A DNA stretch of 32,000 bases. Origin: Nitrosomonas europaea (GTDB lineage Bacteria > Pseudomonadota > Gammaproteobacteria > Burkholderiales > Nitrosomonadaceae). The first letter of the stretch is position 1. Every line of letters starts with the position of its first letter. The translations under genes were made by a program, and so were the position numbers. The notes beneath the pieces were generated by a model. That model saw only the letters and a program-made list of their open reading frames with translations. It was not told the DNA's origin and did no database searches. Of the stretch, positions 12,271-32,000 are shown piece after piece. Location of the stretch: positions 121,789 to 153,788 of the forward strand of contig NZ_FUWK01000003.1 in NCBI RefSeq assembly GCF_900167395.1, written 5' to 3'.

Positions 12271-12289
12271 AATATGACAATACAAATAT

Positions 12290-13205: not shown

Positions 13206-13263
13206 TTCATCATGGCTGCCAAACCCTGAAATTGAATTTCCCGAGTGAGTTGCATTTTGATGG

Positions 13264-14873: not shown

Positions 14874-17800
14874 ATGGGTCGATCCATTAATAAGCATGCT
14901 ACGGATGATAGCAGAAGCGAATCACTGAATACTGGCACACAAGAAAGTGGTACTGACAAATCATCTTCATCTCCTGTCGCTATCGTTGGCTTTGCTTTTC
15001 GTTTTCCGGGAGATGTAAGCGATGAAACCGATTTCTGGAACGCACTGAAACAAAAACGTGATCTCGTAACCCAGATTCCGGCAGATCGCTGGGCTGTCGA
15101 TGAATTACAGCATGATAAACGTTCGGAGCACGGCCGCAGTATTACGTTCTCGGCAGGTGTTTTATCACATATAGAAGAATTCGATGCGAGCTTCTTCGGG
15201 ATTTCACCACGGGAAGCAGCGGTACTCGATCCTCAGCAGCGTCTTTTACTGGAGCTGACCTGGGAAACCATGGAAAACGCCGGAATTCCCCCTTCCTCCA
15301 TGGCAGGTTCGGATTGCGCGGTCTATGTGGGAATTTCCGGGTTTGATTATGGTATGTGCGAAGTGGATGATCTTGCTGTCATCACCTCGCACTCGATGAC
15401 GGGCAATACACTCAGTATTGCCGCCAACCGTATTTCCTATGCTTTTGATTTGCACGGCCCTTCACTGGCCGTGGACACAGCCTGTTCTTCATCGCTGGTG
15501 GCGCTGCATCACGCCTGTAATTGCCTGCGTAACGGGGAAGCCTCTACCGCTCTGGTTGGCGGAGTCAATTTATTGCTTCATCCCTATCCGTTTGTCGGAT
15601 TCACCAAAGCATCCATGCTTTCTGCCAAGGGTCGATGCAAACCTTTCGATGCTTCAGGAGACGGTTATGTGCGTTCAGAAGGTGCTGCCGTTCTGTTGCT
15701 CAAGCCTTTGGAAAAGGCGCTGGCCGATGGCGATGATGTTCATGCAGTCATTCTCTCCAGTGGAGTCAATGCCGATGGTGCCCGGAAAACCGGTATTACC
15801 ATTCCCAGTAGCGATGGCCAGGCTGAATTGATGCGTGCGGTACTGTCTCGCAGTGGGCTTTCATCAAAAGAAGTTGATTTCATCGAAGCGCATGGAACCG
15901 GGACAGTAGTAGGTGATCCGGTTGAAACCAGGGCGATCGGTATGGTTTATGGTCAGGAACGTACCAGACCGTTACCCATTGGATCGGTCAAGGCCAATCT
16001 CGGTCATCTTGAACCGGCTTCGGGCATGGCCGGCCTGATCAAAACAATACTGGCGCTCAAACACCGGGCGCTGCCACCCGCGATCCATCTGCACACACCT
16101 AACCCGCATATCGATTTCCAGGCGTTGAACCTGGAGCTGATCAGGAAATATAAGCCATTCAGTCGCAAACGGAAGAAACCACTTGTTGCCGGCGTCAATT
16201 CTTTCGGATTTGGGGGTGCCAATGCCCACGTGTTGTTAAAGGAGTTTGTTCCTCAAGATAGCAAGGCTGATACGTCATCGACCATGGAATCATTGCCGCC
16301 GCTCTTCCTGTCTGCCCGTACTGAGGCCGCTTTACGCGCTACGGCGGAGCATTACGTCGAACTGCTGAAAGGCAAATCTCCGCAGGAATTTTATGACATT
16401 GCCCATGCAGCGGCTTATCGGCGAGAGCAAATGGAAAAAAGACTGGCACTGCATACCGGCAAGGTGGATTCAACAGTCGATCTGCTCGATCGTTATGCCA
16501 AAGGTGACATGGTTTCCCGGGTTTTTGTCGAGGATGAGTTGCCGCAGAGCGGGGGAGTGGCTTTTGTCTACTCGGGAAATGGTACCCAATGGGCGGGGAT
16601 GGGGCGTGCGTTGCTTGCTGAATCTCCCCGGTTCAAAGAAATTCTCAGTGAAATTGATGAAATCATGCTGCCACAGGCAGGCTTTTCACTGATTACCGAG
16701 CTGGAAGCAGAGGATACAAATTCCAGACTGGATGATACGCGTGTTGCACAACCGCTGCTTTTTGCCATCCAGGTGGGTGTTACCACATTGCTTAGAGAGC
16801 AGGGTATTGAGCCTTCAGCCGTTACAGGGCACAGCGTAGGTGAAATTGCGGCTGCATGGGCATCGGGCGCGCTGGATCTGCAACAGGCCATTCATGTCAT
16901 TTGTGTTCGCAGCCAGGCACAGGGGCTGACTCGTGGAAAAGGCCGGATGGCAGCGGTAGGTCTGTCTGTCGAAGCGATACAGGAAATTATCACCACATTG
17001 GGTGTCGATGCTGAAGTGGAAATAGCCGGAATCAACAGTCCCGGCAATGTTACGCTCTCCGGCCCTCTCGAAGATTTGCAGCAAATACAGAGCGTGGCTG
17101 AATCCCGGGGCATTTTCTTCCGGCTGCTCGATCTCGATTATGCTTTCCATAGTCGCCAGATGGATGCCATTGAAGAACCATTGATTCGTCAGCTGGGTGA
17201 ACTTGCTCCTGCTTACACGGAAAGAGCCACGTTTGTTTCAACCGTTACCGGCAATGAGATTGACGGCCGTTTGCTCGATGCGGGTTACTGGTGGCGTAAC
17301 GTGCGTCAACCGGTTCAGTTTGCTGCTGCGATCAATAGAATTGCCGGGCTGGGTTGCAGAATATTGATTGAAATCGGGCCACATGCGATTTTGCAGCGGT
17401 ATATGGGTGAATGTCTGGCTGCGGCTGAAGTTCAGGGGCGTGTGATCCCGACATTGCGCCGTGATGACAACGGTTTGCAGAGAATTACCGAAACCGTGCT
17501 GCGTACACAGCTTCTTGCTGAGCGGCCATCGCTACAAACTTATTTCTCTGTTCCGGGCCGGCGGGTTCGTCTGCCCAACTATCCGTGGCAACGGGAACGG
17601 CACTGGATACCGTGGACGAATGAGGGATTACATTCGCTGGATCGTCGCCGGGTACATCCACTGCTGGGCTGGCGTATTCCGGGTGTCGATACCCTCTGGG
17701 AGAATACACTCGATCCGGTCACCTTGCCATGGCTGGCAGATCACAAGGTAGGCGGTGCTATCGTCTATCCCGGTGCTGCGTATGCCGAAATGTCACTGGC

Positions 17801-20800
17801 TGCTGCGCGTGAATGGCTGGGAGGAAAGCATTTCACAGTAGAGCAACTCGATATCATCTCCCCGATGGTTTTTGATGGTGAACATGCACGTACCACCCAT
17901 CTGATTCTCAATCCACGTGATGGTGGATTCCAGATCAAAAGTCGCCAGCGGCTCAGCGATGACGAATGGACGCTGCACGCTTCAGGACGCATTCTGGAAG
18001 CAGTCAACAGAATTCCTGTGGCGCGTATCGATGCGCCCGCAGTATCTGCTGAACACGTCGGGCATGAAATCCATTATCAGCGTGCATCACAGCTGGGCCT
18101 TGATTATGGCCCGGGTTTTCAAGGCGTGAGCAATATAAACATCGCAGCAGAAAGGCTTGAGGCTACTCTATCCTGCCCCGAATTACAGCATTTCGATGAT
18201 TATCTGCTGCACCCGGCAATACTGGATCTTTGCTTTCAGTCACTGATCGATTTCTTTGGTGAAGCAATCGATGCCGGGCAGGGGATCGCCTTGCTTCCCG
18301 TCAAAATGGGTAAGCTGAATTTTTGCGGCAATGGAAAAGTGGCATTCTTGCGTGCCAGACTATGTCGTCATGGTACCCGTTCCGCACTGGCGGATTTCGA
18401 ACTGCTGGACAATCAGAATAATCTGATCGCCAGTGCTTCGGCCTGCCGGTTCCGTGCTGCCCACCTCAAGCGTCACGTTCAGCAGAACATATCGAACTGG
18501 CGTATTGTTCCCTGGCTTAAGCCCCATCCGCTCGATGGTATGACCACGGCCATGCCGCCTGTAGCAGGCCTCATCGAACAAGTACGAGCACAATTCGATC
18601 GTGTCAAACATGATCGTCATACCTTATTCAAGGAAATACTTCCACTTACCGAAGCGTTGACATTATCGTTTGCCTGGCAGGCTGTACGGCAGATTCAACA
18701 GTATCGTCCATTGGATTGGCAGCAGATTTTTGATGGATCTCATGCAACTGCCCACGCCCGCTGGCTGGCGAATCTGCTGATCACTGAAGGATTGCTGAAT
18801 AAAGATGATGCCGGCCAGTGGTTTGTCACTATCGATGCGGATCTGCCTTCACCGGAAACAGTCTGGCAAACACTGCTAAATGATTTCCCGGTGTACCTGC
18901 CGCAGCTGATGCTCATGGGGAGAGTCGGTCAGCAATTGCCGGCATTGTTGTGTGGAGAAACTGATGCGCTGAAATTGCTGAATGAGTTGAAACATTCACC
19001 TGTGGCTGAAATGCGTTACCACGATGATCCGGTTTATCTGGGGATGCGGCTTGCTCTCGAGGAAATATTCAGAAATCTGGCAGGCAGCTGGCCTGTATCA
19101 CGCCGGCTGCGAATTCTGGAAATCACCGCTGGTTCCAGTGAACTGCCGAAAATACTGACGGGTTCATTACCCGAAGATCGTTTCGACTATGTTCTGGCCT
19201 TGCCGGATGAAGCTATGCAGGCACGCCAGCAGATCGAATATCAGGAGGATGCCAGCATTGTCGTGGCACGGTATGAGCCTGCCACACTGAAACTGTCTGC
19301 TGATCGTCGGTTACCTGATGCATTCGATGTCATTGTCCTGCATCACGCATTACATCGGACAAACAGCCCACACACAGCGCTGGCTCAAATCCGGCATCTG
19401 CTGGCTGCCGGGGGCATTCTTTTGCTGGCTGAACAGCATTCAGACTGGAGTACCAATTTTCTGGAAGGGATCGATCCCGGCTGGTGGCGTCAGCGCAACA
19501 AAACGCCAGATCTACCAGTATCTCCATTGTTATCGCCCGCAACGTGGCAACAATTGCTGAAGGATGCGGGATTTACGGATACAGAAACATTCTTTGAGCC
19601 CGCTGCAGAAGGTCTGGCCGAGGGAGCTTATCTGTTGCTTGCCAGATGCCCCGCACGAGATAGTGCCATTATTCCCGAGCCCGTCACTGCCTCGTGGTTA
19701 CTGGTAGCAGACGAATCTTCCGCAACCCTGGCCAGGCACCTGAGTAACCGGCTGCAATCATCGGGACAGCAGGTAACCATCACCAGCCGGATAGATGATG
19801 ATCTTTTGCAGAATACTGACCACATCGTTCATCTGCCGGGCTGGAACGATACTCCTGACCAGGCTGCGGATACGGTAACCCGGTTGATGGAGGATGTGAA
19901 GCTGCTGGCTGCCCGGATCGGGAAAACACCTCAATTCTGGCTCGTGACCCGTGGCGGTACGCTCATTAGCGGATGCCCGGCCGAGTCGGAATCCAGTCCG
20001 GCACAGTCTGCGCTCTGGGGATTCGGCCGTGTCGTCATGAACGAATATCCTCAGCTCGCCTGCACACTCATCGATCTGGTTTGTAACCCGGCAACCGTCA
20101 ATCTGGCAGACCGGCTGGTGAATGAACTGCTTGTCCCGGATGGCAGCAATGAAATTGTGCTTTCCGCAGCAGCGCGCTACTGCCTGGTCATGCAGGAAGC
20201 AACGAACCAGCAGATCAGGACGACAGAGCAGTCAGAGAAAAAGGATGAGCGATTTCATCTTGATTTTCACGTCCCCGGACAATTGCGCAACCTCGTCTGG
20301 TTGCCTGATGTTAAGCGTCAACTGGGTGATGACGAGGTTGAAGTATGTACCCGGGCCACCGGCCTCAATTTCCGTGATGTCATGTACCTCATGGGCCTGC
20401 TTCCGGATGAGGCCGTCGAAAATGGTTTTGCAGGCGCCAGCCTCGGGCTGGAATTTTCAGGGATCATCAGCCGGGTTGGGGCACGTGTAAAAGGCCTGTT
20501 ACCCGGTGATGCGGTCATGGGATTCGGTTCTTCCTGCTTTGCCAGCCATGTCATCACGCGAGCAGATGCCGTAGCACCTATGCCCGAGAACTGGTCGTTC
20601 GAGGCCGCAGCGACTGTACCCACCGTTTTTCTGACCGTCTATTACGCGCTCAAGCAGCTGGCAGCTCTGCAGCCGGGAGAGAGGGTACTGATTCACGGTG
20701 CAGCAGGGGGAGTCGGTATCGCTGCCATCCAGCTTGCACGTTATCTTGGCGCGGAAATTTATGCCACTGCAGGCAGTGATGAGAAACGGGATTTCGTCAA

Positions 20801-22508
20801 ATTGCTGGGAGCGGATCATGTGTTCGATTCACGCAGCCTGGCATTTGCTGACGATATTCTTGATGCCACTGCAGGTGAAGGAGTGGATGTGGTTCTCAAT
20901 TCACTTGCGGGTGAAGCCATGCGTCGCAGTATCGATGTGTTGAAACCCTTTGGCCGTTTTCTTGAACTGGGCAAACGCGATTTTTTTGAAAATACCCCGG
21001 TTGGCTTGCGTCCCTTCAAGAACAATATCAGCTATTTCGGCATCGATGCGGATCAGTTACTGACTGCGCGTCCCAGGCTTGCCGTACAACTCTTTCATGA
21101 GGTCATGGCACTGTTTCGTGAACAGGCACTGGCACCACTGCCTTATCGGGTATTTTCAGCCAATCGCATTACGGATGCTTTCCGTGTGATGCAGCAAGCA
21201 CGCCATATCGGCAAAATTGTCGTGTCTCTGGCAGATGCACGGCCAGATATCGAACAGCCTTTACAACCTGTTCCGGCAATACGATTTGAAAGAAACAGTA
21301 CATGGCTGGTCACCGGCGGGCTTTCCGGTTTTGGCCTGGAATCTGCCCGCTGGCTGGCAGAACGGGGTGTCGATCACTTAGTGCTGGCAGGGCGCCGTGG
21401 TATGGATACGCCAGGAGCAAAGGAAATCATCGAAACTTTCGCGGTTCAAGGGGTAAAAGTGATCGCACAGGCGTGCGACATCACTCACGCTGCAGCGGTT
21501 GATACGCTGATCGAACGTATCGGTAAAACACTGCCTCCTCTCAAAGGTGTGCTGCATGCAGCAGCGGTTTTCGACGATCAGCTGATTTCCAGTCTCGATC
21601 AGAAGCGCATCAGCAATGTCATGGATGCCAAACTGCTGGGCGCCTGGCATTTGCACCAGGCCACGCTCGGCACGCCGCTGGATTATTTCATTCTGTACTC
21701 CTCGGTTACTACCGCAATCGGAAATCCGGGGCAGGCCAATTATGTGGCTGCCAATGCAGGGCTCGAAGGGCTGGCGGCTATGCGTCGGCACATGGGTTTG
21801 CCAGCCACCTGCATTGCCTGGGGACCTGTCAGCGACACGGGATACCTCGCGCGTAATCAAGCCGTCAGAGACAGTCTCGAACAGCGCCTCGGTAAACCGC
21901 CTCTTCCGGCTGCAGAAGCGCTCACTCAACTGGATGTTGCACTCAATGACGAAACCGGATTTGTTATTCCTGCTGACTTCGACTGGAATACGCTGAGCCA
22001 TCTGCTGCCTTCAGCGAGCGGTAATCGTTTTGCTATTCTCAACCGGAACAGACGCAGCACCTCTCAAACTACCGAATCGATTGATATTCGGACGTTCATT
22101 ATTGGAAAAACCCGGGCTGAGGTAACAGAAATCGTACGTGGCTTTGTAGTGGAGGAGGTTGCGCAGATCCTGAGCATCAGCCCGGATCGTATCGAGTCAG
22201 GGCGCTCCCTGCATGATCATGGTATGGATTCGCTGATGGCGGTCGAGCTTGCTCTGGGGCTGGAGCGGCGCTTTGGTATCCAGTTACCGGTCATGATGCT
22301 CAACGATGCGCCCACGATTCATACAGTCACGGCACGTATCGTCGAGAAACTGACAAATAAAGGGGATATGCCGGAGGGAGAACAATCAGTCAGCCAGGTC
22401 ACCGAGTTTATCCGTCAGCACGGAGAGGAATTGATGCCGGAAGAAATCGACATCCTGAGTGAGGATGTACGCCATTTTGCTCAACAAGGAACAAGTCTAA
22501 TCGCATGA
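14874..22508 (+). CDS. type I polyketide synthase, single fully reducing module (KS-AT-DH-MT-like-ER-KR-ACP), no thioesterase
   Basis: KS: aa ~34-457 (DTACSSS Cys204, EAHGTGT, NLGH). AT: aa ~563-860 (GHSVGE Ser654, Arg679, YAFH). DH: aa ~926-1200 (HPLLG, YPGAAY, DLCFQ). SAM-MT-like: aa ~1390-1595, with a degenerate motif I (ILEITAGSS). ER: aa ~1795-2118 (HGAAGGVGIAAIQ). KR: aa ~2143-2325 (TGGLSGFG, GQANY). ACP: aa ~2412-2492 (GMDSL Ser2453). A tail of about 50 aa follows. SD-like AAGGA lies upstream of ATG 14874. Confidence 0.95.
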   Translation: MGRSINKHATDDSRSESLNTGTQESGTDKSSSSPVAIVGFAFRFPGDVSDETDFWNALKQKRDLVTQIPADRWAVDELQHDKRSEHGRSITFSAGVLSHIEEFDASFFGISPREAAVLDPQQRLLLELTWETMENAGIPPSSMAGSDCAVYVGISGFDYGMCEVDDLAVITSHSMTGNTLSIAANRISYAFDLHGPSLAVDTACSSSLVALHHACNCLRNGEASTALVGGVNLLLHPYPFVGFTKASMLSAKGRCKPFDASGDGYVRSEGAAVLLLKPLEKALADGDDVHAVILSSGVNADGARKTGITIPSSDGQAELMRAVLSRSGLSSKEVDFIEAHGTGTVVGDPVETRAIGMVYGQERTRPLPIGSVKANLGHLEPASGMAGLIKTILALKHRALPPAIHLHTPNPHIDFQALNLELIRKYKPFSRKRKKPLVAGVNSFGFGGANAHVLLKEFVPQDSKADTSSTMESLPPLFLSARTEAALRATAEHYVELLKGKSPQEFYDIAHAAAYRREQMEKRLALHTGKVDSTVDLLDRYAKGDMVSRVFVEDELPQSGGVAFVYSGNGTQWAGMGRALLAESPRFKEILSEIDEIMLPQAGFSLITELEAEDTNSRLDDTRVAQPLLFAIQVGVTTLLREQGIEPSAVTGHSVGEIAAAWASGALDLQQAIHVICVRSQAQGLTRGKGRMAAVGLSVEAIQEIITTLGVDAEVEIAGINSPGNVTLSGPLEDLQQIQSVAESRGIFFRLLDLDYAFHSRQMDAIEEPLIRQLGELAPAYTERATFVSTVTGNEIDGRLLDAGYWWRNVRQPVQFAAAINRIAGLGCRILIEIGPHAILQRYMGECLAAAEVQGRVIPTLRRDDNGLQRITETVLRTQLLAERPSLQTYFSVPGRRVRLPNYPWQRERHWIPWTNEGLHSLDRRRVHPLLGWRIPGVDTLWENTLDPVTLPWLADHKVGGAIVYPGAAYAEMSLAAAREWLGGKHFTVEQLDIISPMVFDGEHARTTHLILNPRDGGFQIKSRQRLSDDEWTLHASGRILEAVNRIPVARIDAPAVSAEHVGHEIHYQRASQLGLDYGPGFQGVSNINIAAERLEATLSCPELQHFDDYLLHPAILDLCFQSLIDFFGEAIDAGQGIALLPVKMGKLNFCGNGKVAFLRARLCRHGTRSALADFELLDNQNNLIASASACRFRAAHLKRHVQQNISNWRIVPWLKPHPLDGMTTAMPPVAGLIEQVRAQFDRVKHDRHTLFKEILPLTEALTLSFAWQAVRQIQQYRPLDWQQIFDGSHATAHARWLANLLITEGLLNKDDAGQWFVTIDADLPSPETVWQTLLNDFPVYLPQLMLMGRVGQQLPALLCGETDALKLLNELKHSPVAEMRYHDDPVYLGMRLALEEIFRNLAGSWPVSRRLRILEITAGSSELPKILTGSLPEDRFDYVLALPDEAMQARQQIEYQEDASIVVARYEPATLKLSADRRLPDAFDVIVLHHALHRTNSPHTALAQIRHLLAAGGILLLAEQHSDWSTNFLEGIDPGWWRQRNKTPDLPVSPLLSPATWQQLLKDAGFTDTETFFEPAAEGLAEGAYLLLARCPARDSAIIPEPVTASWLLVADESSATLARHLSNRLQSSGQQVTITSRIDDDLLQNTDHIVHLPGWNDTPDQAADTVTRLMEDVKLLAARIGKTPQFWLVTRGGTLISGCPAESESSPAQSALWGFGRVVMNEYPQLACTLIDLVCNPATVNLADRLVNELLVPDGSNEIVLSAAARYCLVMQEATNQQIRTTEQSEKKDERFHLDFHVPGQLRNLVWLPDVKRQLGDDEVEVCTRATGLNFRDVMYLMGLLPDEAVENGFAGASLGLEFSGIISRVGARVKGLLPGDAVMGFGSSCFASHVITRADAVAPMPENWSFEAAATVPTVFLTVYYALKQLAALQPGERVLIHGAAGGVGIAAIQLARYLGAEIYATAGSDEKRDFVKLLGADHVFDSRSLAFADDILDATAGEGVDVVLNSLAGEAMRRSIDVLKPFGRFLELGKRDFFENTPVGLRPFKNNISYFGIDADQLLTARPRLAVQLFHEVMALFREQALAPLPYRVFSANRITDAFRVMQQARHIGKIVVSLADARPDIEQPLQPVPAIRFERNSTWLVTGGLSGFGLESARWLAERGVDHLVLAGRRGMDTPGAKEIIETFAVQGVKVIAQACDITHAAAVDTLIERIGKTLPPLKGVLHAAAVFDDQLISSLDQKRISNVMDAKLLGAWHLHQATLGTPLDYFILYSSVTTAIGNPGQANYVAANAGLEGLAAMRRHMGLPATCIAWGPVSDTGYLARNQAVRDSLEQRLGKPPLPAAEALTQLDVALNDETGFVIPADFDWNTLSHLLPSASGNRFAILNRNRRSTSQTTESIDIRTFIIGKTRAEVTEIVRGFVVEEVAQILSISPDRIESGRSLHDHGMDSLMAVELALGLERRFGIQLPVMMLNDAPTIHTVTARIVEKLTNKGDMPEGEQSVSQVTEFIRQHGEELMPEEIDILSEDVRHFAQQGTSLIA

Positions 22509-23839
22509 ACAAACTCAGTCTTACCCGGAAAGCCAGAACACATCTCATAGATCATATTCTTGGCAGAAAAATGGAAGTAGCGGGTGGTGCTGCTCCTGCG
22601 TCGGCGGAGTGTCCAACCCGTTACTCGTCGATTCCTGATGCCTTTACCCGTTTTGACCGTTTCCCCGGCTATGAAAAAATGCTGGTTCCCAAGGCAGCAT
22701 CCGAGCGATTGGGTCTGGTAAATCCGTTTTTCCGGTCACACGATGGCGTGGCGGGAGCAACTACGCTCATCGGTGGACGTGAATTCATCAATTTTTCCAA
22801 TTACAGCTACCTTGGACTGGCCGGCCACCCTGCCGTGAGCCGAGCGGCAAAAGAAGCTATCGATCGCTATGGTACATCGGCATCTGCAAGCAGACTCGTG
22901 GCAGGTGAGCGACCGGCTCAGCGCAAACTGGAAGAAGCGCTGGCTAATTTATATGAGGTGGATGACTGCATCGTATTTGTCAGCGGACATGCGACCAACG
23001 TCAGCACGATCGGCTGTCTCTTCGGCCCGAAAGATCTGGTGATTCACGACAGTCTCATCCATAACAGTGTATTGCAGGGGATTCAGCTTTCAGGCGCAGC
23101 CCGTCGTTCATTTCCACATAATGACATGGCGGCACTTGAACAAATCCTGGCTGAGATCCGCGCGCAGTTCGAACGTGTGCTGATCGTTACCGAAGGGCTT
23201 TACAGCATGGATGGTGATATTCCGGATCTGCCGGAACTCATCCGCATCAAACAGCACCATAAAGCCTTTCTGATGGTGGATGAAGCGCATTCCCTGGGAG
23301 TACTGGGAGAGACAGGAAAAGGAGTACGGGAACACTTCGGTATCCAAGGCAAAGCAGTGGATATCTGGATGGGCACGCTCAGCAAGACATTGGCTGGATG
23401 TGGCGGTTACATTGCCGGAGAACGGGCGCTTGTCGAGCACCTGAAATATGCAGCACCAGGTTTTGTCTACAGTGTCGGTATGGCGCCCTCCCTGGCGGCT
23501 GCTTCTCTGGAAGCGTTGCGTATCATGCAGCGAGAACCGGAGCGGGTAGCACGGTTACGTGAACGAGGGCAGCAATTTCTGGAGCTGATGCAATCTCTGG
23601 GCGTCAATACCGGCCTTGCTCAGGGCTATGCCGTCATTCCCGCCATCATTGGCAGCTCGCTCAAAGCGGCCCGGCTGTCAAACCAGTTTTTCGATGCCGG
23701 TATCAATGTCCAGCCGATCATCCATCCCGCGGTTGAAGAGAAAGCCGCAAGACTCAGATTTTTCCTGTCAGCCATGCATACCGATCAGCACGTACGGTAT
23801 ACCTGTGAAGTCATGAAGAAACTGACGGGTCTCCACTAA
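22505..23839 (+). CDS. PLP-dependent alpha-oxoamine synthase family enzyme (8-amino-7-oxononanoate synthase / serine palmitoyltransferase-like)
   Basis: NFSNYSYLGL, SGHATN, DEAHSLGVLG and the PLP-lysine motif GTLSKTLAGCGGY are present. The start overlaps the PKS stop (ATGA at 22505-22508). Confidence 0.9.
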   Translation: MNKLSLTRKARTHLIDHILGRKMEVAGGAAPASAECPTRYSSIPDAFTRFDRFPGYEKMLVPKAASERLGLVNPFFRSHDGVAGATTLIGGREFINFSNYSYLGLAGHPAVSRAAKEAIDRYGTSASASRLVAGERPAQRKLEEALANLYEVDDCIVFVSGHATNVSTIGCLFGPKDLVIHDSLIHNSVLQGIQLSGAARRSFPHNDMAALEQILAEIRAQFERVLIVTEGLYSMDGDIPDLPELIRIKQHHKAFLMVDEAHSLGVLGETGKGVREHFGIQGKAVDIWMGTLSKTLAGCGGYIAGERALVEHLKYAAPGFVYSVGMAPSLAAASLEALRIMQREPERVARLRERGQQFLELMQSLGVNTGLAQGYAVIPAIIGSSLKAARLSNQFFDAGINVQPIIHPAVEEKAARLRFFLSAMHTDQHVRYTCEVMKKLTGLH

Positions 23840-23865
23840 TCCTTTTGCCTGTTAACAAGAAAAAT

Positions 23866-25056
23866 ATGAACACGGAGAATCACTTTATTCGTATCGGATT
23901 ATTGCTGGCAGGAATCATGCTGATAAGTGCGCTGTCTGGTTGCGCAACTCAGCCTGACTGGGTTTCTTCCAGCGGGGCAAGCCGGGAGCAAATCCTGAAA
24001 AAGAGCGAACCCGGCCAGATTGGAGGGATCGGGTTGGTCGGTGTCGACGACACGCTTGCCAGAAAACTTTTTGAAGCGAAAAAACTGGGCCAGTTTGCCG
24101 ATATTTTCCCGAGTTCATCCACCAATAACTACATCATCGGCCCGGGTGACGTGATCGATGTCACCATCTGGGAAGCTCCCCCCGCCATGCTGTTTGGCGC
24201 AATCGTTCTCGACCCTTCAGCCGGCCCGACGACCACGCGAGGGGTTACCTTTCCGGAACAAATGGTGACGTCGGACAGCACAATTGCCATACCGTTTGCC
24301 GGCCGGGTTTCCGTCAGGGAGCGTACTGCCCAGGAGATTGAAAGAGAAATCATCGTACGGCTGTACGGTAAAGCCAACCAGCCCCAGGTACTGGTGCGGG
24401 TCATCAAAAACAATACATCCAACGTCACGATCGTGGGCGAAGTCAATAACAGCACACTGATGGCACTGACACCCAAAGGCGAAAGACTGCTCGATGCGCT
24501 GGCCATAAGCGGTGGAGTCAAACAATCCATCAATCGTATGGCAGTTCAGCTATCACGCGCCAATGTGACAGCAACCATGGCGCTTGACTCGGTCATTCGG
24601 GATCCGAAGCAGAATATCCTGCTCAAACCCGGCGATGTGATTACTGCCTTGTATCAGCCGCAGAGTTTTTCGGTATTGGGGGCAACCGGTAAGAATGAAG
24701 AAGTACTCTTCGAAGCTCAGGGTATTTCTCTGGCACAGGCACTGGCGCGTTCGGGCGGCCTGGCGGATAACCGTGCCGATGCACGCGGTGTATTCATATT
24801 CCGGTTTGAAGATGCAAAACTGGTCGATGCCGGTCATTCGTTGACTGCCGGAGCCGATGGGACTGTGCCAGTGGTGTATCAGGTCGATTTGCGTGATCCC
24901 GCATCATTCTTCGTCACCCAGAATTTTCCGGTCCAGAATCGCGATGTGATTTATGTCGCCAATTCTCCGGAAGCTGAATTCAACAAATTCATGAAGCTGC
25001 TGATATCCGTTGCGATGCCCGGCCTGACGATCAACCGAATGTTCCTGCTGAATTGA
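23866..25056 (+). CDS. outer-membrane polysaccharide export (OPX; Wza/KpsD-like) lipoprotein
   Basis: Signal peptide with lipobox (IMLISALSGC). The Poly_export motif PGDVIDVTIWE is followed by SLBB-like repeats (GEVN..., KPGDVITAL). Start is either ATG 23866 (preferred) or TTG 23845. Confidence 0.85.
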   Translation: MNTENHFIRIGLLLAGIMLISALSGCATQPDWVSSSGASREQILKKSEPGQIGGIGLVGVDDTLARKLFEAKKLGQFADIFPSSSTNNYIIGPGDVIDVTIWEAPPAMLFGAIVLDPSAGPTTTRGVTFPEQMVTSDSTIAIPFAGRVSVRERTAQEIEREIIVRLYGKANQPQVLVRVIKNNTSNVTIVGEVNNSTLMALTPKGERLLDALAISGGVKQSINRMAVQLSRANVTATMALDSVIRDPKQNILLKPGDVITALYQPQSFSVLGATGKNEEVLFEAQGISLAQALARSGGLADNRADARGVFIFRFEDAKLVDAGHSLTAGADGTVPVVYQVDLRDPASFFVTQNFPVQNRDVIYVANSPEAEFNKFMKLLISVAMPGLTINRMFLLN

Positions 25057-25092
25057 TGACTCGACCCAATCCACTGCTGTTTTCTTTCAGGT

Positions 25093-25884
25093 ATGGCTAT
25101 GGCTGAAGCTCGAAATCCGCTGCTTGTTTCCTTTGCTGTCTGGAAGGCGATTTTTCTGCGTGAAGCACTCGACCGGCTGTTCGATATGCGGGCTGCATGG
25201 TTCTGGCTGCTGGTCGAACCCGTTCTGCACATCGGCTTCCTGGTTTTCATCTTTACCGTCATTCGTATGCGTACGGTTGGCAATGCCGATGTCGCGGTAT
25301 GGATCATCGTCGGTATGCTGGCGTTCTTTCTGTTCCGGCGGACAGCAGTTCAGGTGACCTATGCGGTCGATTCCAACCGGCCCTTGTTCACTTATCGCCA
25401 GGTCAAACCGTTTGATCCGGTCCTTGCGCGTGCGGTGCTGGAAGCTTTTCTGATGTCGATTATTTCGATCATCATAATAGGTACCGCGATCCTGCTGGGT
25501 CACGAAGCATGGCCATACGATGCTTTACTGGTTTTGCAGGCCAACTTCGGGCTGTGGCTGTTTGGTATTGGCTATGGTCTGGTTGCATCGGTATTGATGG
25601 AGCTTGTCCCGGAAATGGAACATGTCCTCAAGATTCTGATGCTGCCGCTGTACCTGATTTCCGGCGTCATCTTGCCTTTGGCTGCCATACCCCAGCCTTA
25701 TCTCGATCTGTTGCTGCTGAATCCGATTGCACATGGGCTTGAACTGGCGCGTGCAGGCTTTTTTCCCTACTACCACACCGTGCCGGGCCTCAGCATGGAA
25801 TATCTTTATGCATGGGGTATCTCCGGCATATTTCTCGGTTTGATACTGTACCGCCGCTTTGCTTTACAGCTGGTGATGAGGTGA
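25093..25884 (+). CDS. kpsM: capsule-type ABC-2 transporter permease
   Basis: A 263-aa polytopic protein with the ABC-2 layout (about 6 hydrophobic spans) and an N-terminus ...VWKAIFLREALDRLF typical of KpsM/Wzm. It sits directly upstream of the KpsT-like ATPase. Confidence 0.82.
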   Translation: MAMAEARNPLLVSFAVWKAIFLREALDRLFDMRAAWFWLLVEPVLHIGFLVFIFTVIRMRTVGNADVAVWIIVGMLAFFLFRRTAVQVTYAVDSNRPLFTYRQVKPFDPVLARAVLEAFLMSIISIIIIGTAILLGHEAWPYDALLVLQANFGLWLFGIGYGLVASVLMELVPEMEHVLKILMLPLYLISGVILPLAAIPQPYLDLLLLNPIAHGLELARAGFFPYYHTVPGLSMEYLYAWGISGIFLGLILYRRFALQLVMR

Positions 25885-25960
25885 ATACGAAAATGGAAAT
25901 AAAGTTGAAAATTGTCATGATGTTAAGGCAACAAACAAGCGGTCAACTGGGGTTTTCAGG

Positions 25961-26623
25961 ATGATTGTTATCGAAGATGTATATAAGCGCTATAAAACAG
26001 ACCATGGCCCTGGTAAATGGATATTACAAGGCGTCAATCTGACGATTCCGCGTAATGTCAATGTCGGTCTGATCGGTTCAAATGGCGCGGGCAAATCTAC
26101 CTTGCTGCGTATCATCGGCGGTATCGATCACCCTAATAAAGGAAAAGTGGAACGTCGCTGCCGGCTTTCCTGGCCAATGGGGCAGGGTGGACTGGAACCG
26201 ACGCTGACCGGACGGCAGAATGCCAAATTCGTTTGCCGGTTGCATGGCCACCAGGATGATCTTCCTGAACGGCTGATATTCATACAGGATTTTTCCGGAC
26301 TGAAAGATGCTTTCGATGAGCCGGTGAACACCTACTCATCCGGGATGCGCTCGCGCCTGCAGTTTGCAATGTCACTTGCGTTCGATTTCGATATTTATAT
26401 TTCTGATGAAGTGACTGCTGCAGGGGATGCCGCTTTTCGTGACAAGGCAGCCGCCGCTTTCAAAGGGATGACCAATCGCGCCGGACTGATCATGGTCGCT
26501 CACAGCGAAAGCACACTCAGGCAATTTTGTGAGGCCGGTATTTTGCTTTATCAGGGTAAAGCGCAGTGGTTCGACAAAATCGAGGAAGCCTTCAAAGCGT
26601 ATAAGGACACCGTACAAAAATGA
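25961..26623 (+). CDS. kpsT: capsule-type ABC transporter ATP-binding protein
   Basis: Walker A GSNGAGKST, signature YSSGMRSRL and Walker B IYISDEV. The short (220 aa) single-NBD size is typical of KpsT. Confidence 0.9.
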   Translation: MIVIEDVYKRYKTDHGPGKWILQGVNLTIPRNVNVGLIGSNGAGKSTLLRIIGGIDHPNKGKVERRCRLSWPMGQGGLEPTLTGRQNAKFVCRLHGHQDDLPERLIFIQDFSGLKDAFDEPVNTYSSGMRSRLQFAMSLAFDFDIYISDEVTAAGDAAFRDKAAAAFKGMTNRAGLIMVAHSESTLRQFCEAGILLYQGKAQWFDKIEEAFKAYKDTVQK

Positions 26624-27786
26624 CGCAACTCCAGCAAAGTGTAATTGAATCTCAGCCAGGCAAACTAAGTGATTATCTCGGACATACCAGGAGAAATCGG
26701 TTTTCCATACGGCTGTTTTCGGGCCTGATAGGGTTCATTCTGGTATTGGCTGTCATGGCCACCGGTTACTGGCTGGTTTTTGCCTCCGATCGCTATGTTT
26801 CGGAAGCAAGCGTGATCATTCGTAAAACGGACTCAGTGACTGCCCCCAGCTTTGATCTGTCCATGCTGATTGCCGGTGTGGCCGGAGTGAACCGTGCGGA
26901 TCAGTTATTATTGCGGGAATATCTGCTTTCAGTGGATATGCTCAAAAAACTCGATACAGAGCTCGATTTACATGCGCACTACAGTGATGAGCACTATGAT
27001 CTTCTTTCACGCATGTGGCTGAAGGATATGGAATGGTTTCATCGCCATTATCTTTCACGGGTTTCAATCGAATACGATGATTATGCCGGCGTGCTCCGGA
27101 TCAACGCCCAGGCTTATGATCCTGAAATAGCACGTGCTATTTCAAACCTGCTGGTACGCGAGGGTGAGCGTTACATGAACCAGATCAGCCATGAACTGGC
27201 AGAAACACAGGTCAGCTTCCTGACTACCCAGGTGAATCTGGCTCAACTGCGCTTCCAGCAGGTCAGACAGAAATTACTGGCCTATCAGAACAAGAAAGGG
27301 CTGCTTTCACCCCAGGCAACCGTGGAGAGCCTCAATACCCTCATTGCCAAACTGGAGGAGCAGCGTGCTCAGCTCAAAACGCAGCTGGCATCTTTACCCA
27401 GGACGCTGGATCGTAACCACCCCAATTTGGTAATGCTCAGGCAATCCCTGGCGGCCATCGATCGGCAGATTACCGATGAAAAAGCAAAACTTGCCAATCC
27501 CACAGGAAAAACCCTGAATATCACGATGGAAGAATTCCAGCGGCTGGAAATGGAAGTTACCTTTGCGCAAGAACTTTATAAAGCGGCGCTCACTGCACTG
27601 GAAAAAGGCAGGATCGATGCCACACGCATGCTGGATAAAGTTTCCGTACTGCAGGCACCCACCCTTCCTGAATATCCGATGGAGCCCCGGCGTATCTATA
27701 ACACCCTGGTTACACTGCTGTTTGCACTGATGCTGGCTGGAATCCTGAAGCTGCTGGAAGGCATCATACTCGACCATGTAGATTGA
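26620..27786 (+). CDS. kpsE: capsule export inner-membrane/periplasmic adaptor (PCP-3; KpsE/CtrB family)
   Basis: An N-terminal TM (LIGFILVLAVMATGYWLVF) is followed by YVSEASVIIRK, a long coiled-coil region and a C-terminal TM. The start overlaps the kpsT stop (ATGA at 26620-26623). Confidence 0.82.
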   Translation: MTQLQQSVIESQPGKLSDYLGHTRRNRFSIRLFSGLIGFILVLAVMATGYWLVFASDRYVSEASVIIRKTDSVTAPSFDLSMLIAGVAGVNRADQLLLREYLLSVDMLKKLDTELDLHAHYSDEHYDLLSRMWLKDMEWFHRHYLSRVSIEYDDYAGVLRINAQAYDPEIARAISNLLVREGERYMNQISHELAETQVSFLTTQVNLAQLRFQQVRQKLLAYQNKKGLLSPQATVESLNTLIAKLEEQRAQLKTQLASLPRTLDRNHPNLVMLRQSLAAIDRQITDEKAKLANPTGKTLNITMEEFQRLEMEVTFAQELYKAALTALEKGRIDATRMLDKVSVLQAPTLPEYPMEPRRIYNTLVTLLFALMLAGILKLLEGIILDHVD

Positions 27787-27809
27787 CGGGTTGCGTGACA
27801 AGCTCAATC

Positions 27810-28008
27810 AGGGAGCATCTGAAAAACGTCGGCGAGGCAGTCAGTTCAAGGCAAAAATCGGTGATGCAAGCAAAGCGTAGCGAACAGCCGTAAGGCTGGC
27901 CCGTAGGGCGAGGCGCTGGCGCCGAGTAAAAAGCGGAGTTTATATGTAATAAATGAGCATTTTGAGCTGATTTTTAACGCAGAAATGGCAACACAGGTAG
28001 TTTTTCAG
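27810..28008 (+). repeat. MITE-like repeat, copy A (core 27819-28008, about 190 bp) with 9-bp terminal inverted repeats
   Basis: CTGAAAAAC (27819-27827) and GTTTTTCAG (28000-28008) are exact reverse complements. The internal blocks GGAGTTTATA..TAAATGAGCATTTTGAGC and GCAGAAAT.GCAA.ACAG are shared with copy B. Copy A carries about 60 extra internal nt (~27868-27927). Confidence 0.7.
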
Positions 28009-28136
28009 AGATTCCTCAGGGAATCTCTGATCAGCCCCTCCGTGAGACGCGATATAGTAGACAGGTTTATATGTGAGATTTGTTTGGAGGATATGTAAGT
28101 TGTTTTTACAACTGGTTTTCTGGAAAAGGGGGATGC

Positions 28137-29027
28137 ATGAAAATTCGTAAAGCGGTTTTTCCGGTGGCGGGGCTGGGTACTCGTTTTTTACCAGCCACCA
28201 AGGCCAGCCCCAAGGAGATGCTGCCGGTGGTGGATAAGCCACTCATACAATATGCTGTGGAAGAAGCCTGGGCTGCTGGTATTACCGAAATGATATTCGT
28301 CACGGGTCGCAGCAAGCGCAGCATTGAAGATCATTTTGATAAAGCGTATGAGCTGGAATCCGAGCTGGAGCGCCGGGGAAAAACCGAGATGCTGCAGTAC
28401 GTGCGCAATCTGTTGCCCGACGATATGAAGTGTGTGTATATCCGCCAGTCTGAAGCACTGGGTCTGGGCCACGCGGTGCTATGCGCCCAGCCGGCGGTGG
28501 GTGATGAACCTTTTGCTGTGTTACTGGCTGACGATTTACTTGAAGGTGACCCTGTCGTGATACGCCAGATGGTGGATGTGTACGAGTACTACAAGTGCTC
28601 GGTGCTGGGTGTGCAGCAGGTGCCGCGTGAAGATACGCGCAGCTATGGCATAGTGGCCAGCCAGCCGATTCGTGATGATCTGGAAGCAGTACAGTTCATT
28701 GTGGAAAAACCTGATCCGGAAGAGGCTCCTTCCACCATGGCAGTGGTTGGACGTTATGTACTCACCCCGCGCATTTTCCATCACCTGATACGGTTGGGCA
28801 AAGGCACCGGGAGCGAGATACAGTTGACCGACGGTATTGCTGCGTTGATGCAGGAAGAGCAGGTGCTGGCCTATCGTTACAAAGGCCAGCGTTACGACTG
28901 TGGCAGCAAGATAGGCTATTTGGAAGCCACCTTGGCTATGGCGCGTAAGCACCCTGAAGTGGGGGCGCAGTTTGAACAGCTGTTACAGTCGTTTCAGCAC
29001 CAGGGAAACTCTGAAGAACGTCAGTGA
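28137..29027 (+). CDS. galU: UTP--glucose-1-phosphate uridylyltransferase
   Basis: [44 protein letters not shown]...VLLADDL...VEKP are canonical GalU motifs. Start set to ATG 28137. Confidence 0.95.
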
Positions 29028-29140
29028 AGTAATCAGCTCAAAGCAAAAGTCTGCGAGAAAGTGGAGTTTATACGACGTGATAAATGAGCATTTTGAGCGT
29101 AACTTCCAGCGCAGAAATAGCAATACAGATGGTTTTTCAG
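29002..29140 (+). repeat. MITE-like repeat, copy B (core 29011-29140, 130 bp), overlapping the last codons and stop of galU
   Basis: CTGAAGAAC (29011-29019) and GTTTTTCAG (29132-29140) form terminal inverted repeats with one mismatch. Copy B aligns with copy A along its length, in the same orientation. Confidence 0.7.
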
Positions 29141-29335
29141 GTGCCATGGCAGCGTGCGTTTTATCCTTTTGGTTTTCGCCTTTCCCAGCGATTTTTTTGT
29201 CCGACGGGATCTCACAGAGTGGCCTGATAAAAAATGAAAGCTGTAAATAGCGGGAGAATATATTGCTATTTCAACAATAACTGATATGAGAAGTTATGCG
29301 AAATTACCCGTTTGTACAAAATCGTTAAAGGATGA

Positions 29336-29688
29336 ATGATGTTTTTGCTGTTCACTAACGAGATCATTGAACGTATCAGCAATGTTTTACTTCTTTATCT
29401 GGTAACTTCAACCGTCGTTGATGAAGTAGTGCCTGGATCGGCTGCGACGTGGAGAAAAAAGTTATATCTCATCTTTTCCCTCATTTTTTACTACAGTATC
29501 TGGGTGAGCACGCTAAAGAAATTACAGGCCATAGGGAAAAGACGTTATTAGCATGGCTTGTCTTGCATGAGCCGGTCTTTAGAAAAACGTTGATTAAATC
29601 AATAAATATCATTAATGATGCATCGCGACAGGTTGCCATAGGCGTAGGCGCTCCCCGGAAAGAAATCAGAATCAACCACTTGAATTAA
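29336..29688 (+). pseudogene. possible frameshifted or degenerate hypothetical gene (two overlapping ORFs, 29336-29551 and 29449-29688)
   Basis: The two ORFs can be joined by a 1-nt shift at the A6 run 29455-29460 (...GSAATWRKK / EKKVISHLFPHFLLQYLGEHAKEITGH...). AAAGGA lies upstream of ATG 29336/29339. No family recognised. Confidence 0.2.
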
Positions 29689-29947
29689 TTCTGGAATACT
29701 CATCGACACCAACAGCTGCTATTACGCTCTGGCAGGATCAAACGCGGGCGGCGCGGCACAACTGCTCTCGTCAGAATAAAGTTGCAAGCCTATCAGAAGA
29801 CTGTGGTCTGCCCTCCATTTACTATTTACCAGAAATAACGGGAAGAAATTATCGAAGTACAGCAGGATAAAATTACTACGCAGATTTAGAGCGATCCAGA
29901 GAAGAAATTATAGAGTCCTGCTTAGAACAAGAAGAAAACCTTCTTCT

Positions 29948-30901
29948 ATGTTGGATAGCAACAAAGGCACTTCCAAAGTCATTGTTGCTCCAAAAATTTT
30001 TGATATAAACAAAAATGAAAACCGTGGAAATTTAACAATATTTCTTGGGAAGCTGAGAAAATATTTCACACATAATGGATCACATGAAATAACTATCGAT
30101 TTTACACAAACAGAGAAATTTATTGCTGCGGGAACTCTGTTATTTTATTCAGAATTAGCTTATTTAAAGCAGTTTATAAATAACGAAACAAGGCTCAGGT
30201 ATATACCTCCAAAGAATCCTAAAGCATTTGAAGTACTTATCCAGATAGAACTTTATAAACTCTGTGGAATAAGAAAGCCAAAGTCAAAAAACGCCAATAA
30301 GTACGATGATGTGTTGAACTGGAAAGTAGCTTGTGGCAACGTGGTAAACAATGAACAGTGTGCGCCCACAATTGAGGCATACGAAGGGCAGTTAGCCGAG
30401 CCTCTAATTGATGGAATATTCAAAGGGCTTGCAGAAGCGATGACTAATACGGTTCATCACGCCTACGCCGAGATCCGAGAAGATGGGCTAAACCATAAAC
30501 CTTCCAAGAATAATTGGTGGATGTTTTCTCAAGCAAGAGATGGAGAACTGACCGTTGTTTTCTGTGATTTAGGGATAGGTATACCAAGATCGTTACCAAA
30601 AAAACATCCATCAATTTTTCACAAGATGCTCTCACTTGGCAAGATTAGTGATCATCAATGCATTGCTTCATCTGTTGAACTAAACGCTACAAGCACCAAG
30701 ATGCCTGGCAGGGGGAAAGGCCTTGGGAACATCATAGAAATTGCCAGCAAAAACAAAGCAGGTGGCGTCATTATTTACAGCAATAAAGGGATGTATAGAC
30801 TCGGTCCGGATGCAACTGAGCCTTTCTCTCGTGATCTAAAAAATAGTATATTGGGAACAATTATTTGCTGGAATGTAACGCTAAGTAAGGTGGGTTTATG
30901 A
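29948..30901 (+). CDS. fused STAS-like N-domain + GHKL (RsbW/SpoIIAB-like) ATPase/kinase
   Basis: C-terminal half: N-box EAMTNTVHHA (ExxxNxxxH), G1 box DLGIGIP, G2 box GRGKGLGNI and a terminal GTIICW strand. N-terminal half: EITIDFTQTEKFIAAGTLLFYSEL...EVLIQIELYKLCG resembles the STAS pattern (xDFsgvxFIdSsGlxxL...vLxxtgLxxxf). Confidence 0.65.
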   Translation: MLDSNKGTSKVIVAPKIFDINKNENRGNLTIFLGKLRKYFTHNGSHEITIDFTQTEKFIAAGTLLFYSELAYLKQFINNETRLRYIPPKNPKAFEVLIQIELYKLCGIRKPKSKNANKYDDVLNWKVACGNVVNNEQCAPTIEAYEGQLAEPLIDGIFKGLAEAMTNTVHHAYAEIREDGLNHKPSKNNWWMFSQARDGELTVVFCDLGIGIPRSLPKKHPSIFHKMLSLGKISDHQCIASSVELNATSTKMPGRGKGLGNIIEIASKNKAGGVIIYSNKGMYRLGPDATEPFSRDLKNSILGTIICWNVTLSKVGL

Positions 30902-31236
30902 AAATTATTAATATAAGGGAAAATTTTTCCAGATATCCTGCAGGAAGATATCGTGCCGATGGCCCGTATAACGGTGAAAAATTCAGAGAAGAACTCCTTG
31001 TTCCTGCTTTGTCTGAAGCCATAGACAAAGGTGAAAAAGTTAAGGTAGAGCTCGACGGAGTGCGGGGCTACAACTCTTCATTTCTGGAAGAAGCGTTTGG
31101 TGGGCTGGTGCGATCCGGTAAGTTTGCATCAACCCGGGATTTATCAGAAAGATTCGAATTCGTCTCTACAGACAAGAGCCTAATTGAAGAAATACGCGGA
31201 TACATGGAAGAAGCTACACCTGCAGTAGCACAATAA
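30898..31236 (+). CDS. STAS-like protein of the DUF4325 type
   Basis: This 112-aa protein contains ...RYPAGRYRADGPYNGEKFREELL...KVKVELDGVRGYNSSFLEEAFGGL, matching my recollection of DUF4325 (STAS-like). The start overlaps the upstream stop (ATGA at 30898-30901). Confidence 0.65.
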   Translation: MKIINIRENFSRYPAGRYRADGPYNGEKFREELLVPALSEAIDKGEKVKVELDGVRGYNSSFLEEAFGGLVRSGKFASTRDLSERFEFVSTDKSLIEEIRGYMEEATPAVAQ

Positions 31237-31240
31237 TGTC

Positions 31241-31726
31241 TTGTTACCAGAATTGCTGGCTATGGCTCAACTTCTAGTCTCATGGTTATTAATAATAGGC
31301 GGATGGCTCTTTGTACACAGAGCCACCCTCAGCAGGGAAAGAAGAAAGGAAAAAAGAGAAGAAATCAACAATACTATTCAAGAAATCAGAGCGATAGAAA
31401 ACATTGCAATTGATTTTCATAATTCGAAAATCTTCGATGAAAAAGCAGCCAGTAGTCTTACTCTCAGGATAAACAGGCTCAACAGAAAACTGCAGGCACC
31501 CCCTACATTCAATGAACTTAAGATCCCGACTCAATTAATGATTGAGTTCAGGAAAACAATTACTCTCGAACATTTTGACAAGTCGAACTTCCCTTCCATG
31601 GTTCAACGCATCATGAAAGGTAATCCTTACCCGGCTACTTCTATTGAGATTTTGATCAGAGACATCAATTCCGCCACTGATGATTTAGTAGATTGTATAG
31701 AAGCGGAAAAGAATAATAAATTGTAG
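31241..31726 (+). CDS. hypothetical membrane-anchored protein: one N-terminal TM helix plus a charged helical domain of about 130 aa
   Basis: LLAMAQLLVSWLLIIGGWLFVH is followed by RATLSRERRKEKREEINN. Start is TTG 31241 or ATG 31262, 5-26 nt after the upstream stop, so it is probably co-transcribed. No family recognised. Confidence 0.55.
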   Translation: MLPELLAMAQLLVSWLLIIGGWLFVHRATLSRERRKEKREEINNTIQEIRAIENIAIDFHNSKIFDEKAASSLTLRINRLNRKLQAPPTFNELKIPTQLMIEFRKTITLEHFDKSNFPSMVQRIMKGNPYPATSIEILIRDINSATDDLVDCIEAEKNNKL

Positions 31727-31835
31727 TAGTTCAGATTTGATCTGACAGCAGGTCTTGCCAAGAGGTGGGATTACCCGGTTTGATAGAGGTGCGAATCTTT
31801 ATCAACCAAACGCGAAAGCGTAAAGGAGTAATCCC

Positions 31836-32000
31836 ATGAGCAGTGTTCATCATAAAATCATTAAACACAAGATTGGCTTGCTTAATCTGGCAGCTGAGCT
31901 TGGCAATGTATCCCGTGCCTGTAAGGTGATGGGTTTTTCTCGCGATACTTTCTATCGCTATCAGGCAGCTGTGGAAACAGGAGGTGTTGAAGCTCTGATA
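31836..32000 (+). mobile_element. IS transposase gene, N-terminal HTH part (integrase/rve-type, IS481-like by recollection); continues past the window end
   Basis: AAGGAG (31822-31827) precedes ATG 31836. MSSVHHKIIKHKIGLLNLAAELGNVSRACKVMGFSRDTFYRYQAAVETGGVEALI is a typical transposase HTH N-terminus. GC content rises again from about 31740. The IS left end was not located. Confidence 0.7.

Follow-up and report, generated by a model that had tools for sequence, protein, structure and literature searches.

We analyzed a 32,000-nucleotide stretch of the Nitrosomonas europaea genome (hereafter the window; positions are counted from its first letter), which carries near its right end a cassette of three genes, here called g1, g2 and g3. 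The first two genes are homologous to the kinase and the antitoxin of VapKSC, an operon of three genes that works as a toxin-antitoxin system against phages (Chambers et al., EMBO J 2026, PMC13373217), and the third encodes a predicted membrane-anchored protein. Relatives of the trio are spread across bacterial genomes and viral contigs, and in prophages they lie directly downstream of the repressor gene. The window matches the N. europaea chromosome GCA_054182965.1 identically across 12 kb, and is near-identical to that of strain ATCC 19718.

The three genes of the cassette

The cassette is formed by three co-directional open reading frames (ORFs), in the order g1-g2-g3, with the following features:

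29948-30901, + strand: g1, VapK-like serine-kinase candidate, 317 residues as annotated
about 29969-30265, + strand: STAS-like N-terminal domain of g1, from predicted topology
30119-30121, + strand: F58 of g1, aligned with F54 of VapK, a residue that stacks on single-stranded DNA (ssDNA)
about 30323-30880, + strand: GHKL domain of g1, from the AlphaFold model and Foldseek
30434-30460, + strand: N-box of g1, E163-x3-N167-x3-H171 (the E-x3-N part at 30434-30448)
30566-30580, + strand: G1 motif of g1, DLGIG
30707-30727, + strand: G2 motif of g1, GRGKGLG
30898-31236, + strand: g2, stand-alone DUF4325 STAS-like protein, 112 residues, VapS-like
31075-31077, + strand: Ser60 of g2, predicted phospho-acceptor, in GYNSSF and in the invariant motif SSFxxExFGG
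31241 (TTG start, 161 residues) or 31262 (ATG start, 154 residues) to 31726, + strand: g3, candidate effector
about 31265-31318, + strand: transmembrane helix of g3, from the Kyte-Doolittle profile and the AlphaFold model

The genes are tightly packed: g1 and g2 share an ATGA overlap (30898-30901), and g2 and g3 are 4-25 nucleotides apart, depending on the start codon chosen for g3. The guanine-cytosine (GC) content over positions 29000-32000 is 0.385-0.42, versus 0.50-0.57 elsewhere in the window; the drop, from about 0.52 to 0.39-0.42, lies 3' of a galU-like gene. A first-pass annotation of this DNA had described three packed ORFs in one direction within low-GC DNA, and the coordinates, the overlap and the GC contrast all bear it out. 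When compared with Nitrosomonas mobilis and a related viral contig, g1, g2 and g3 have ratios of nonsynonymous to synonymous substitution (dN/dS) of 0.07-0.20, indicating that all three are under purifying selection. Promoter and terminator scans of positions 27000-32000 gave nothing exceeding chance, and a tRNA scan gave no hits.

The catalytic half of g1 is well conserved: the residues of the N-box (E..N), G1 (DxGxG) and G2 (GxGxGLG) are invariant among 67 g1 homologues. With these 67 homologues as input, AlphaFold produced a model with a predicted local distance difference test (pLDDT) score of 87 and a predicted template modelling (pTM) score of 0.82. In Foldseek searches with this model, its C-terminal half gave as top matches SpoIIAB (1til, 1l0o, 1th8) and the GHKL domains of CheA P4; for SpoIIAB, the TM score on the target was 0.60-0.64. 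Searches at the sequence level were much less sensitive: HATPase_c scored below threshold in Pfam, and the sole match among the sequences of solved structures, with either the single sequence or the profile, was the RsbW N-box (E 0.6). In PHROGs, g1 belongs to phrog_3364 (E 6e-46), a family of unknown function. The segment that precedes the kinase domain is modelled as beta-beta-alpha-beta-alpha-beta-alpha-alpha, an order that fits STAS, and this predicted topology, together with an alignment to the STAS region of VapK, suggests that the N-terminal domain is STAS-like. Full-length g1 homologues have about 350 residues, start with MKKLSK... and carry a basic N-terminal helix.

In g2, DUF4325 (Pfam, E 4e-15) is the only domain found in the 112 residues, and a short C-terminal segment extends beyond the STAS core. 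Residues S60, S61, F62, E65 and F67 are invariant in the 55 sequences of the family. When the family profile was compared with the sequences of solved structures, the best match was 9Z7O_A, which is VapS, with S60 of g2 falling on S48 of VapS. VapS was reached by the family profile only; the single g2 sequence gave matches to winged helix-turn-helix (wHTH) proteins, which we dismissed as chance. As a side observation, g2 matches in PHROGs only the C-terminal 100 positions of phrog_5816, a phage family of 441 positions, so that in some phages DUF4325 may be joined to a larger protein, perhaps as a fusion of kinase and STAS.

The third protein, g3, has a hydrophobic N-terminal helix (Kyte-Doolittle 19-residue maximum of 2.02, residues 5-23), followed by a basic juxtamembrane stretch (RERRKEKRE) and then a helical bundle. 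Its AlphaFold model (pLDDT 82) has a long helix, at residues 2-61, and then the bundle. Because the basic stretch follows the transmembrane helix, the positive-inside rule would place the bundle in the cytoplasm and the short N-terminus outside. A hydrophobic N-terminal segment is present in nearly all of the 60 family members. We found no significant match for g3 in Pfam, NCBIfam, PHROGs, PADLOC, solved structures or BFVD (using Foldseek for the structures). Two Pfam hints below threshold, Hema_stalk (E 6e-4) and the PIN-associated PF20698 (E 0.11), were rejected since they fall on the transmembrane and coiled helix; for the latter, a comparison with the VapC profile was also null. The Foldseek matches in solved structures and BFVD were generic helical bundles only, and were set aside. 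An NCBIfam scan of all three proteins gave nothing useful.

The first-pass annotation had quoted the motifs ExxxNxxxH, DxGxG, GxGxGLG and GYNSSF, and had called g1 a GHKL protein, g2 a DUF4325 protein and g3 a single-pass membrane protein. The motifs are present and conserved in the family, and each of the three calls agrees with the results above: the SpoIIAB and CheA P4 matches, the Pfam assignment, and the hydrophobic helix followed by a modelled long helix and bundle.

Relationship to VapKSC and other kinase-STAS systems

VapKSC consists of VapK, a STAS-GHKL kinase; VapS, an antitoxin made of a STAS domain with a short helix at the C-terminus; and VapC, a PIN nuclease toxin (PMC13373217). 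The system gives two-log protection against a phage, which is abolished by mutating VapC, VapS S48 or VapK F54; the phosphomimetic VapS S48E no longer binds VapC, which is then released (PMC13373217). F54 of VapK, like W68 of CapK, is an aromatic residue of the kinase STAS domain that stacks on ssDNA (PMC13373217). We took the VapK, VapS, CapK and CapS sequences from the supplementary files of that paper, and collected the VapK family plus four further vapKSC loci for comparisons between families.

The first two genes of the cassette are homologous to vapK and vapS. When the g1 and VapK families were aligned with hhalign, the result was 97.6% (E 2.9e-12); the 236 aligned columns start in STAS strand 3 and extend to the C-terminus, and pair F58 of g1 with VapK F54. 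BLASTP of g1 against VapK gave E 3e-7. The g2 and VapS families aligned at 94.5% (E 7.8e-8), and VapS itself is a DUF4325 protein in Pfam (E 2.5e-14). For g3 and VapC, in contrast, hhalign gave 0.09%, that is, no relationship. The two systems share the order of the three genes, a STAS-GHKL kinase as gene 1 and, as gene 2, a DUF4325 protein (about 115 residues in VapKSC) with the phospho-serine aligned; VapKSC too is present in defence islands and variable contexts. They differ in the third gene, which in VapKSC encodes a cytoplasmic PIN nuclease of about 205 residues, whereas g3 is a membrane-anchored helical protein of about 150 residues. In addition, VapK does not have the extra N-terminal helix, rich in lysine and arginine (K/R-rich), of g1-type kinases; the similarity between the families is remote (20-27% identity); and the g1 family is often prophage-borne, beside the CI repressor gene.

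Among the vapKSC operons that we compared, one directly follows QatABCD-like genes (locus L114) and another a type I restriction-modification operon, with Fic and GmrSD genes also downstream (locus L115); the neighbours in loci L114-L117 agree with the published association with defence islands. VapK relatives in metagenome contigs amounted to one locus, and a tblastn search of plasmids with a VapS fragment matched only a truncated Leptotrichia gene.

A second related system is CapK/CapS, which regulates transcription: CapK combines helix-turn-helix (HTH), STAS and GHKL domains, and CapS is a repressor composed of STAS and wHTH domains (PMC13373217). As proposed here for g1 and g2, the substrate of the STAS-GHKL kinase is a STAS protein, which is phosphorylated at a conserved serine in helix 2, and the sequence around this serine is similar (TDSSF in CapS, YNSSF in g2). 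However, CapK has an N-terminal HTH where g1-type kinases have a basic helix and no HTH, and the wHTH of CapS is absent from g2, which has DUF4325 only. Moreover, the capK-capS pair lies upstream of a separate immune operon (Bub, CBASS), while no conserved operon is found beyond g3.

The resemblance to the classical SpoIIAB/SpoIIAA and RsbW/RsbV pairs lies in the kinase fold, for which they are the best matches among solved structures, and in a STAS substrate whose serine lies where helix 2 begins. In contrast to those pairs, the g1-g2-g3 module contains neither a sigma factor nor a PP2C phosphatase, its kinase is fused to a STAS-like domain of its own, and it is mobile and phage-borne. The scores obtained with the SpoIIAA, SpoIIAB and RsbW sequences are indicative only; global hhalign alignments against single sequences were uninformative.

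The sensor-switch half of the cassette, the kinase and its STAS partner, is thus already known as being of the CapK/VapK-CapS/VapS kind. The first-pass annotation could match the cassette to no named defence system. This holds for the database searched (see below), but as a claim that no relative is known it is out of date, since VapKSC and CapK/CapS share the kinase and DUF4325 halves (PMC13373217). Not described so far are the third component, a membrane protein, and the prophage-borne, repressor-linked lifestyle of a large family. Neither a membrane-protein variant nor DUF4325 is mentioned in PMC13373217, and our searches of the literature on DUF4325, on STAS and GHKL domains in phage defence, and on VapK/CapK turned up no account of the membrane-protein variant.

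Distribution, prophage context and the N. europaea copy

In a survey of one genome per species we identified 65 loci with a g1 relative, spanning Beta-, Gamma- and Alphaproteobacteria, Nitrospira, Binatia, Entotheonella and others. A g2 gene directly followed g1 in all of them (65/65), and the next ORF was of g3 type (140-170 residues, with an N-terminal hydrophobic helix and shared motifs) in about 60 of the 65. No fourth gene family was conserved near the trio across these loci. Genome neighbours were heterogeneous, with 123 flanking ORFs matching 159 Pfam families, as expected for a mobile accessory cassette; they included some integrases, S24 repressors, type I restriction-modification subunits and one resolvase. 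The g1 kinase family is large: in an exhaustive profile search, the number of cluster representatives (50% identity) was 883 at E<=1e-30 and 3,896 at E<=1e-3.

Viral sequences gave a consistent picture. In IMG/VR, a g1 relative occurred on 41 viral contigs, of which 38 had an intact trio and the other three were cut by contig ends. In all nine viral contigs tested, the ORF immediately upstream of g1, in the same orientation, encoded a CI/LexA-type repressor (HTH plus Peptidase_S24), and Peptidase_S24 accounted for 17 of the 145 flanking ORFs in viral contigs. The published gene table of Francisella phage KIRK lists proteins of 293 residues, 112 residues (DUF4325) and 125 residues (transmembrane) between repressor and integrase. 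Marinobacter phage AS1 has an intact trio beside its CI/Cro genes. With more than 100 loci in which g1, g2 and g3 occur together, the co-occurrence check proposed by the first-pass annotation came out in favour of a linked triad; its remark that no sigma factor, PP2C phosphatase or DNA-binding output lies nearby also applies to the family, there being none among the conserved genes of the 65 genome loci. In our reading, the cassette is probably a three-gene switch that is self-contained and moves horizontally.

The slot downstream of cI is expressed in lysogeny and is typical of prophage exclusion and defence genes. In lambda it is occupied by rexAB, and in lactococcal prophages small membrane proteins of the Sie2009 type are exclusion genes encoded beside the repressor. 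The trio resembles these, by analogy only, in its co-oriented position right after cI and in having a membrane protein as its likely executor. Unlike the trio, neither Rex nor Sie includes a kinase or a STAS protein, and g3 showed no sequence or fold similarity to any known protein.

The copy in the window differs from its relatives at both ends:

29840-29947, + strand: in-frame 5' extension of g1, encoding the K/R-rich N-terminal helix (GKKLSKYSRIKLLRRFRAIQRRNYRVLLRTRRKPSS) of full-length homologues
31723-32000, + strand: left end of an insertion sequence (IS), with a transposase ORF from 31838 that runs beyond the window end (347 residues, HTH_28/29 and rve)
11889-12932 of comparison locus L068: the IS, with its HTH and rve transposase

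The ancestral GTG start of g1 reads GGG at 29840-29842 in the window and in one sister strain, and is GTG in the aligned DNA of N. mobilis and of a related viral contig. The 36 codons upstream of the annotated ATG at 29948 are still open and in frame, and the AlphaFold model has a helix in this region, at residues 6-31 (pLDDT 86-96). The g1 of N. europaea probably starts at 29948, without the basic helix. At the other end, the IS replaces the last two codons of g3, so that the protein ends in ...KNNKL in the window and in ...KNNKFP in IS-free sister copies; the identity to an IS-free contig ends at about 31722. Two related Nitrosomonas contigs have the cassette and no IS. Since sister strains hold the cassette without it, the IS is a recent and strain-specific insertion, its position next to the cassette is incidental and not evidence on function, and we rejected the idea that it delivered the cassette. 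The IS is not part of the cassette, and the functional hint that the first-pass annotation had drawn from the adjacent transposase has to be abandoned.

Several observations concern the surroundings. After the IS, just past the right end of the window, lies a toxin-antitoxin cluster (13209-15976 in loci L068/L069) with PIN_3, HTH_37, a MazE-PIN (VapBC-type) pair and an HTH_37/Gp49 (HigAB-type) pair; the cassette and these genes make up a small accessory island, flanked by galU and glycosyltransferase genes. On the left, the low-GC spacer between galU and g1 contains a hydrophobic ORF of 71 residues (29336-29551), which is likewise predicted as a gene in contigs of sister strains (L070 9392-9604) and has no family match on record. 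The galU-like NTP_transferase gene (28080-29027, compared with L069 8189-9080) is intact in the window and in GCA_054182965.1, and is called as two pieces of 71 and 234 residues in the ATCC 19718 reference AL954747.1; the records either differ by an indel, or one of them contains a sequencing error. Farther upstream, positions 14874-27786 hold a polyketide-synthase-like ORF of 2,544 residues (KS-AT-DH-methyltransferase and further domains). After it come an aminotransferase gene and genes for export of the capsule type (Poly_export, ABC2_membrane, ABC_tran and a KpsE-like ORF); the region looks like a locus for a lipid- or polyketide-linked polysaccharide.

Proposed function and alternative explanations

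The explanation that we favour, and that we consider somewhat probable, is that the cassette is a VapKSC-type kinase-STAS switch with a membrane effector that aborts or excludes phage infection. An anti-phage or abortive-infection role is suggested above all by the position downstream of prophage CI repressors. In such a switch, g1 would be a STAS-GHKL serine kinase with the role of sensor. The effector would be g3, held in the inner membrane by its one helix with the bundle in the cytoplasm within reach of g2, and unphosphorylated g2 would keep it inactive through this cytoplasmic domain. By analogy with CapK and VapK, the most likely trigger would be ssDNA or some other product arising from phage infection or DNA damage; in full-length g1 proteins, the K/R-rich N-terminal helix may help in responding to the cue. 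Once triggered, g1 would phosphorylate Ser60 of g2, and phosphorylated g2 would release g3. Free g3 would then act at the membrane: it would either self-associate, with membrane integrity being lost (abortive infection), or keep the DNA of superinfecting phages from entering. In prophages, the trio would be transcribed together with the CI repressor, and lysogens would thereby be defended against other phages. The idea of the first-pass annotation that the membrane protein is the output of a module resembling a partner switch fits this scheme, by analogy with VapKSC.

Several points weigh against this explanation. The g1-g2-g3 family is known from sequences alone, and no protein of the cassette had a match in PADLOC-DB v2.0.0 at E values up to 1. 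The similarity to VapK and VapS is remote: g1 and VapK share 27% identity over 169 residues, and the hidden Markov model score against the single VapK sequence was just 18.5 bits. The first-pass annotation had read the N-terminal domain of g1 as a STAS fold; predicted topology and the alignment to VapK agree with this reading, but the profile of the domain matched no STAS entry in Pfam or among the sequences of solved structures. The column of F58 holds F in some members of the g1 family and M in others, so that ssDNA sensing may not carry over to this family. As for g3, it has no recognizable toxin, pore or enzyme signature, and in about a third of its family the hydrophobic segment scores under the usual transmembrane threshold. 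Finally, having lost the g1 start and had its g3 end clipped by the IS, the N. europaea copy may be weakened.

Alternatively, the trio could be an addiction or stability module, that is, a toxin-antitoxin system built on the same kinase-STAS-effector switch that mainly stabilizes prophages and islands, or serves a general DNA-damage or stress response, with no specific anti-phage function. We regard this as unlikely. The VapKSC authors themselves see a blurred boundary between stress response and immunity (PMC13373217), and a stability module would fit the location of the cassette among classical toxin-antitoxin genes in N. europaea, as well as that of the trio on prophages and near integrases or resolvases. 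A slot right after CI, however, points to exclusion or defence rather than to stability. The homologous VapKSC, moreover, did protect against a phage (PMC13373217).

It is rather unlikely, in our judgement, that g3 is instead a membrane sensor or anchor that recruits or regulates the kinase-STAS pair, responding for example to envelope perturbation at phage DNA entry, and that the output is a host or phage protein encoded elsewhere being phosphorylated or bound. Such a role would suit a protein with no toxin-like motif or known fold, it would leave room for the conserved basic N-terminal helix of g1, which is otherwise unexplained, and GHKL anti-sigma kinases such as SpoIIAB and RsbW classically sequester a third partner themselves. 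But a portable module needs its own output, and the more than 100 loci, in many phyla and in phages, have no other conserved neighbour; in VapKSC, which is homologous, the effector is the product of the third gene, and it binds the STAS protein (PMC13373217).

That the N. europaea cassette is an inactive remnant is quite improbable. The GTG to GGG change, which leaves the annotated g1 protein without the conserved basic helix, and the loss of the last two g3 codons would be expected of a decaying copy. However, all three genes have intact reading frames, residues of the catalytic site and the phosphosite are conserved, dN/dS is low, all four genomes and contigs examined encode an identical 317-residue g1, and the effect of the IS is limited to the replacement of -FP by -L. 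Finally, a classical transcriptional partner switch, in which an anti-sigma factor and its antagonist control a sigma factor or repressor encoded elsewhere (in prophages perhaps CI/Cro), is very improbable: despite the closest solved kinase fold being SpoIIAB, the N-box matching RsbW, the proximity of the trio to CI in prophages and the role of CapK/CapS in transcription (PMC13373217), there is no sigma factor, PP2C phosphatase or DNA-binding domain in or beside the cassette, g2 lacks the wHTH of CapS, and most chromosomal copies have no repressor nearby.

Extending the kinase-STAS switch with a membrane effector to the family as a whole, we tentatively propose that the trio represents a widespread immunity family of prophages and islands (roughly 900 kinase clusters at 50% identity), in which a CapK/VapK-type kinase and a STAS antitoxin would gate a new class of small membrane effectors, released by phosphorylation for Rex-like abortive infection or exclusion. 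If this is true, the kinase-STAS pair described in 2026 would be a general, swappable immunity sensor and not peculiar to two systems, a portable front end for effectors as unrelated as a repressor, a nuclease and a membrane protein. The membrane effector would add a third type of output, and the first that is predominantly phage-encoded. A function would also be provided for several families of hypothetical proteins, namely phrog_3364, many DUF4325 proteins and an unnamed membrane-protein family, which adjoin the repressor in many prophages of proteobacteria such as Pseudomonas, Cupriavidus, Marinobacter and Francisella. The cassette would then be a tractable case for studying how the phosphorylation of a STAS domain governs a membrane protein.

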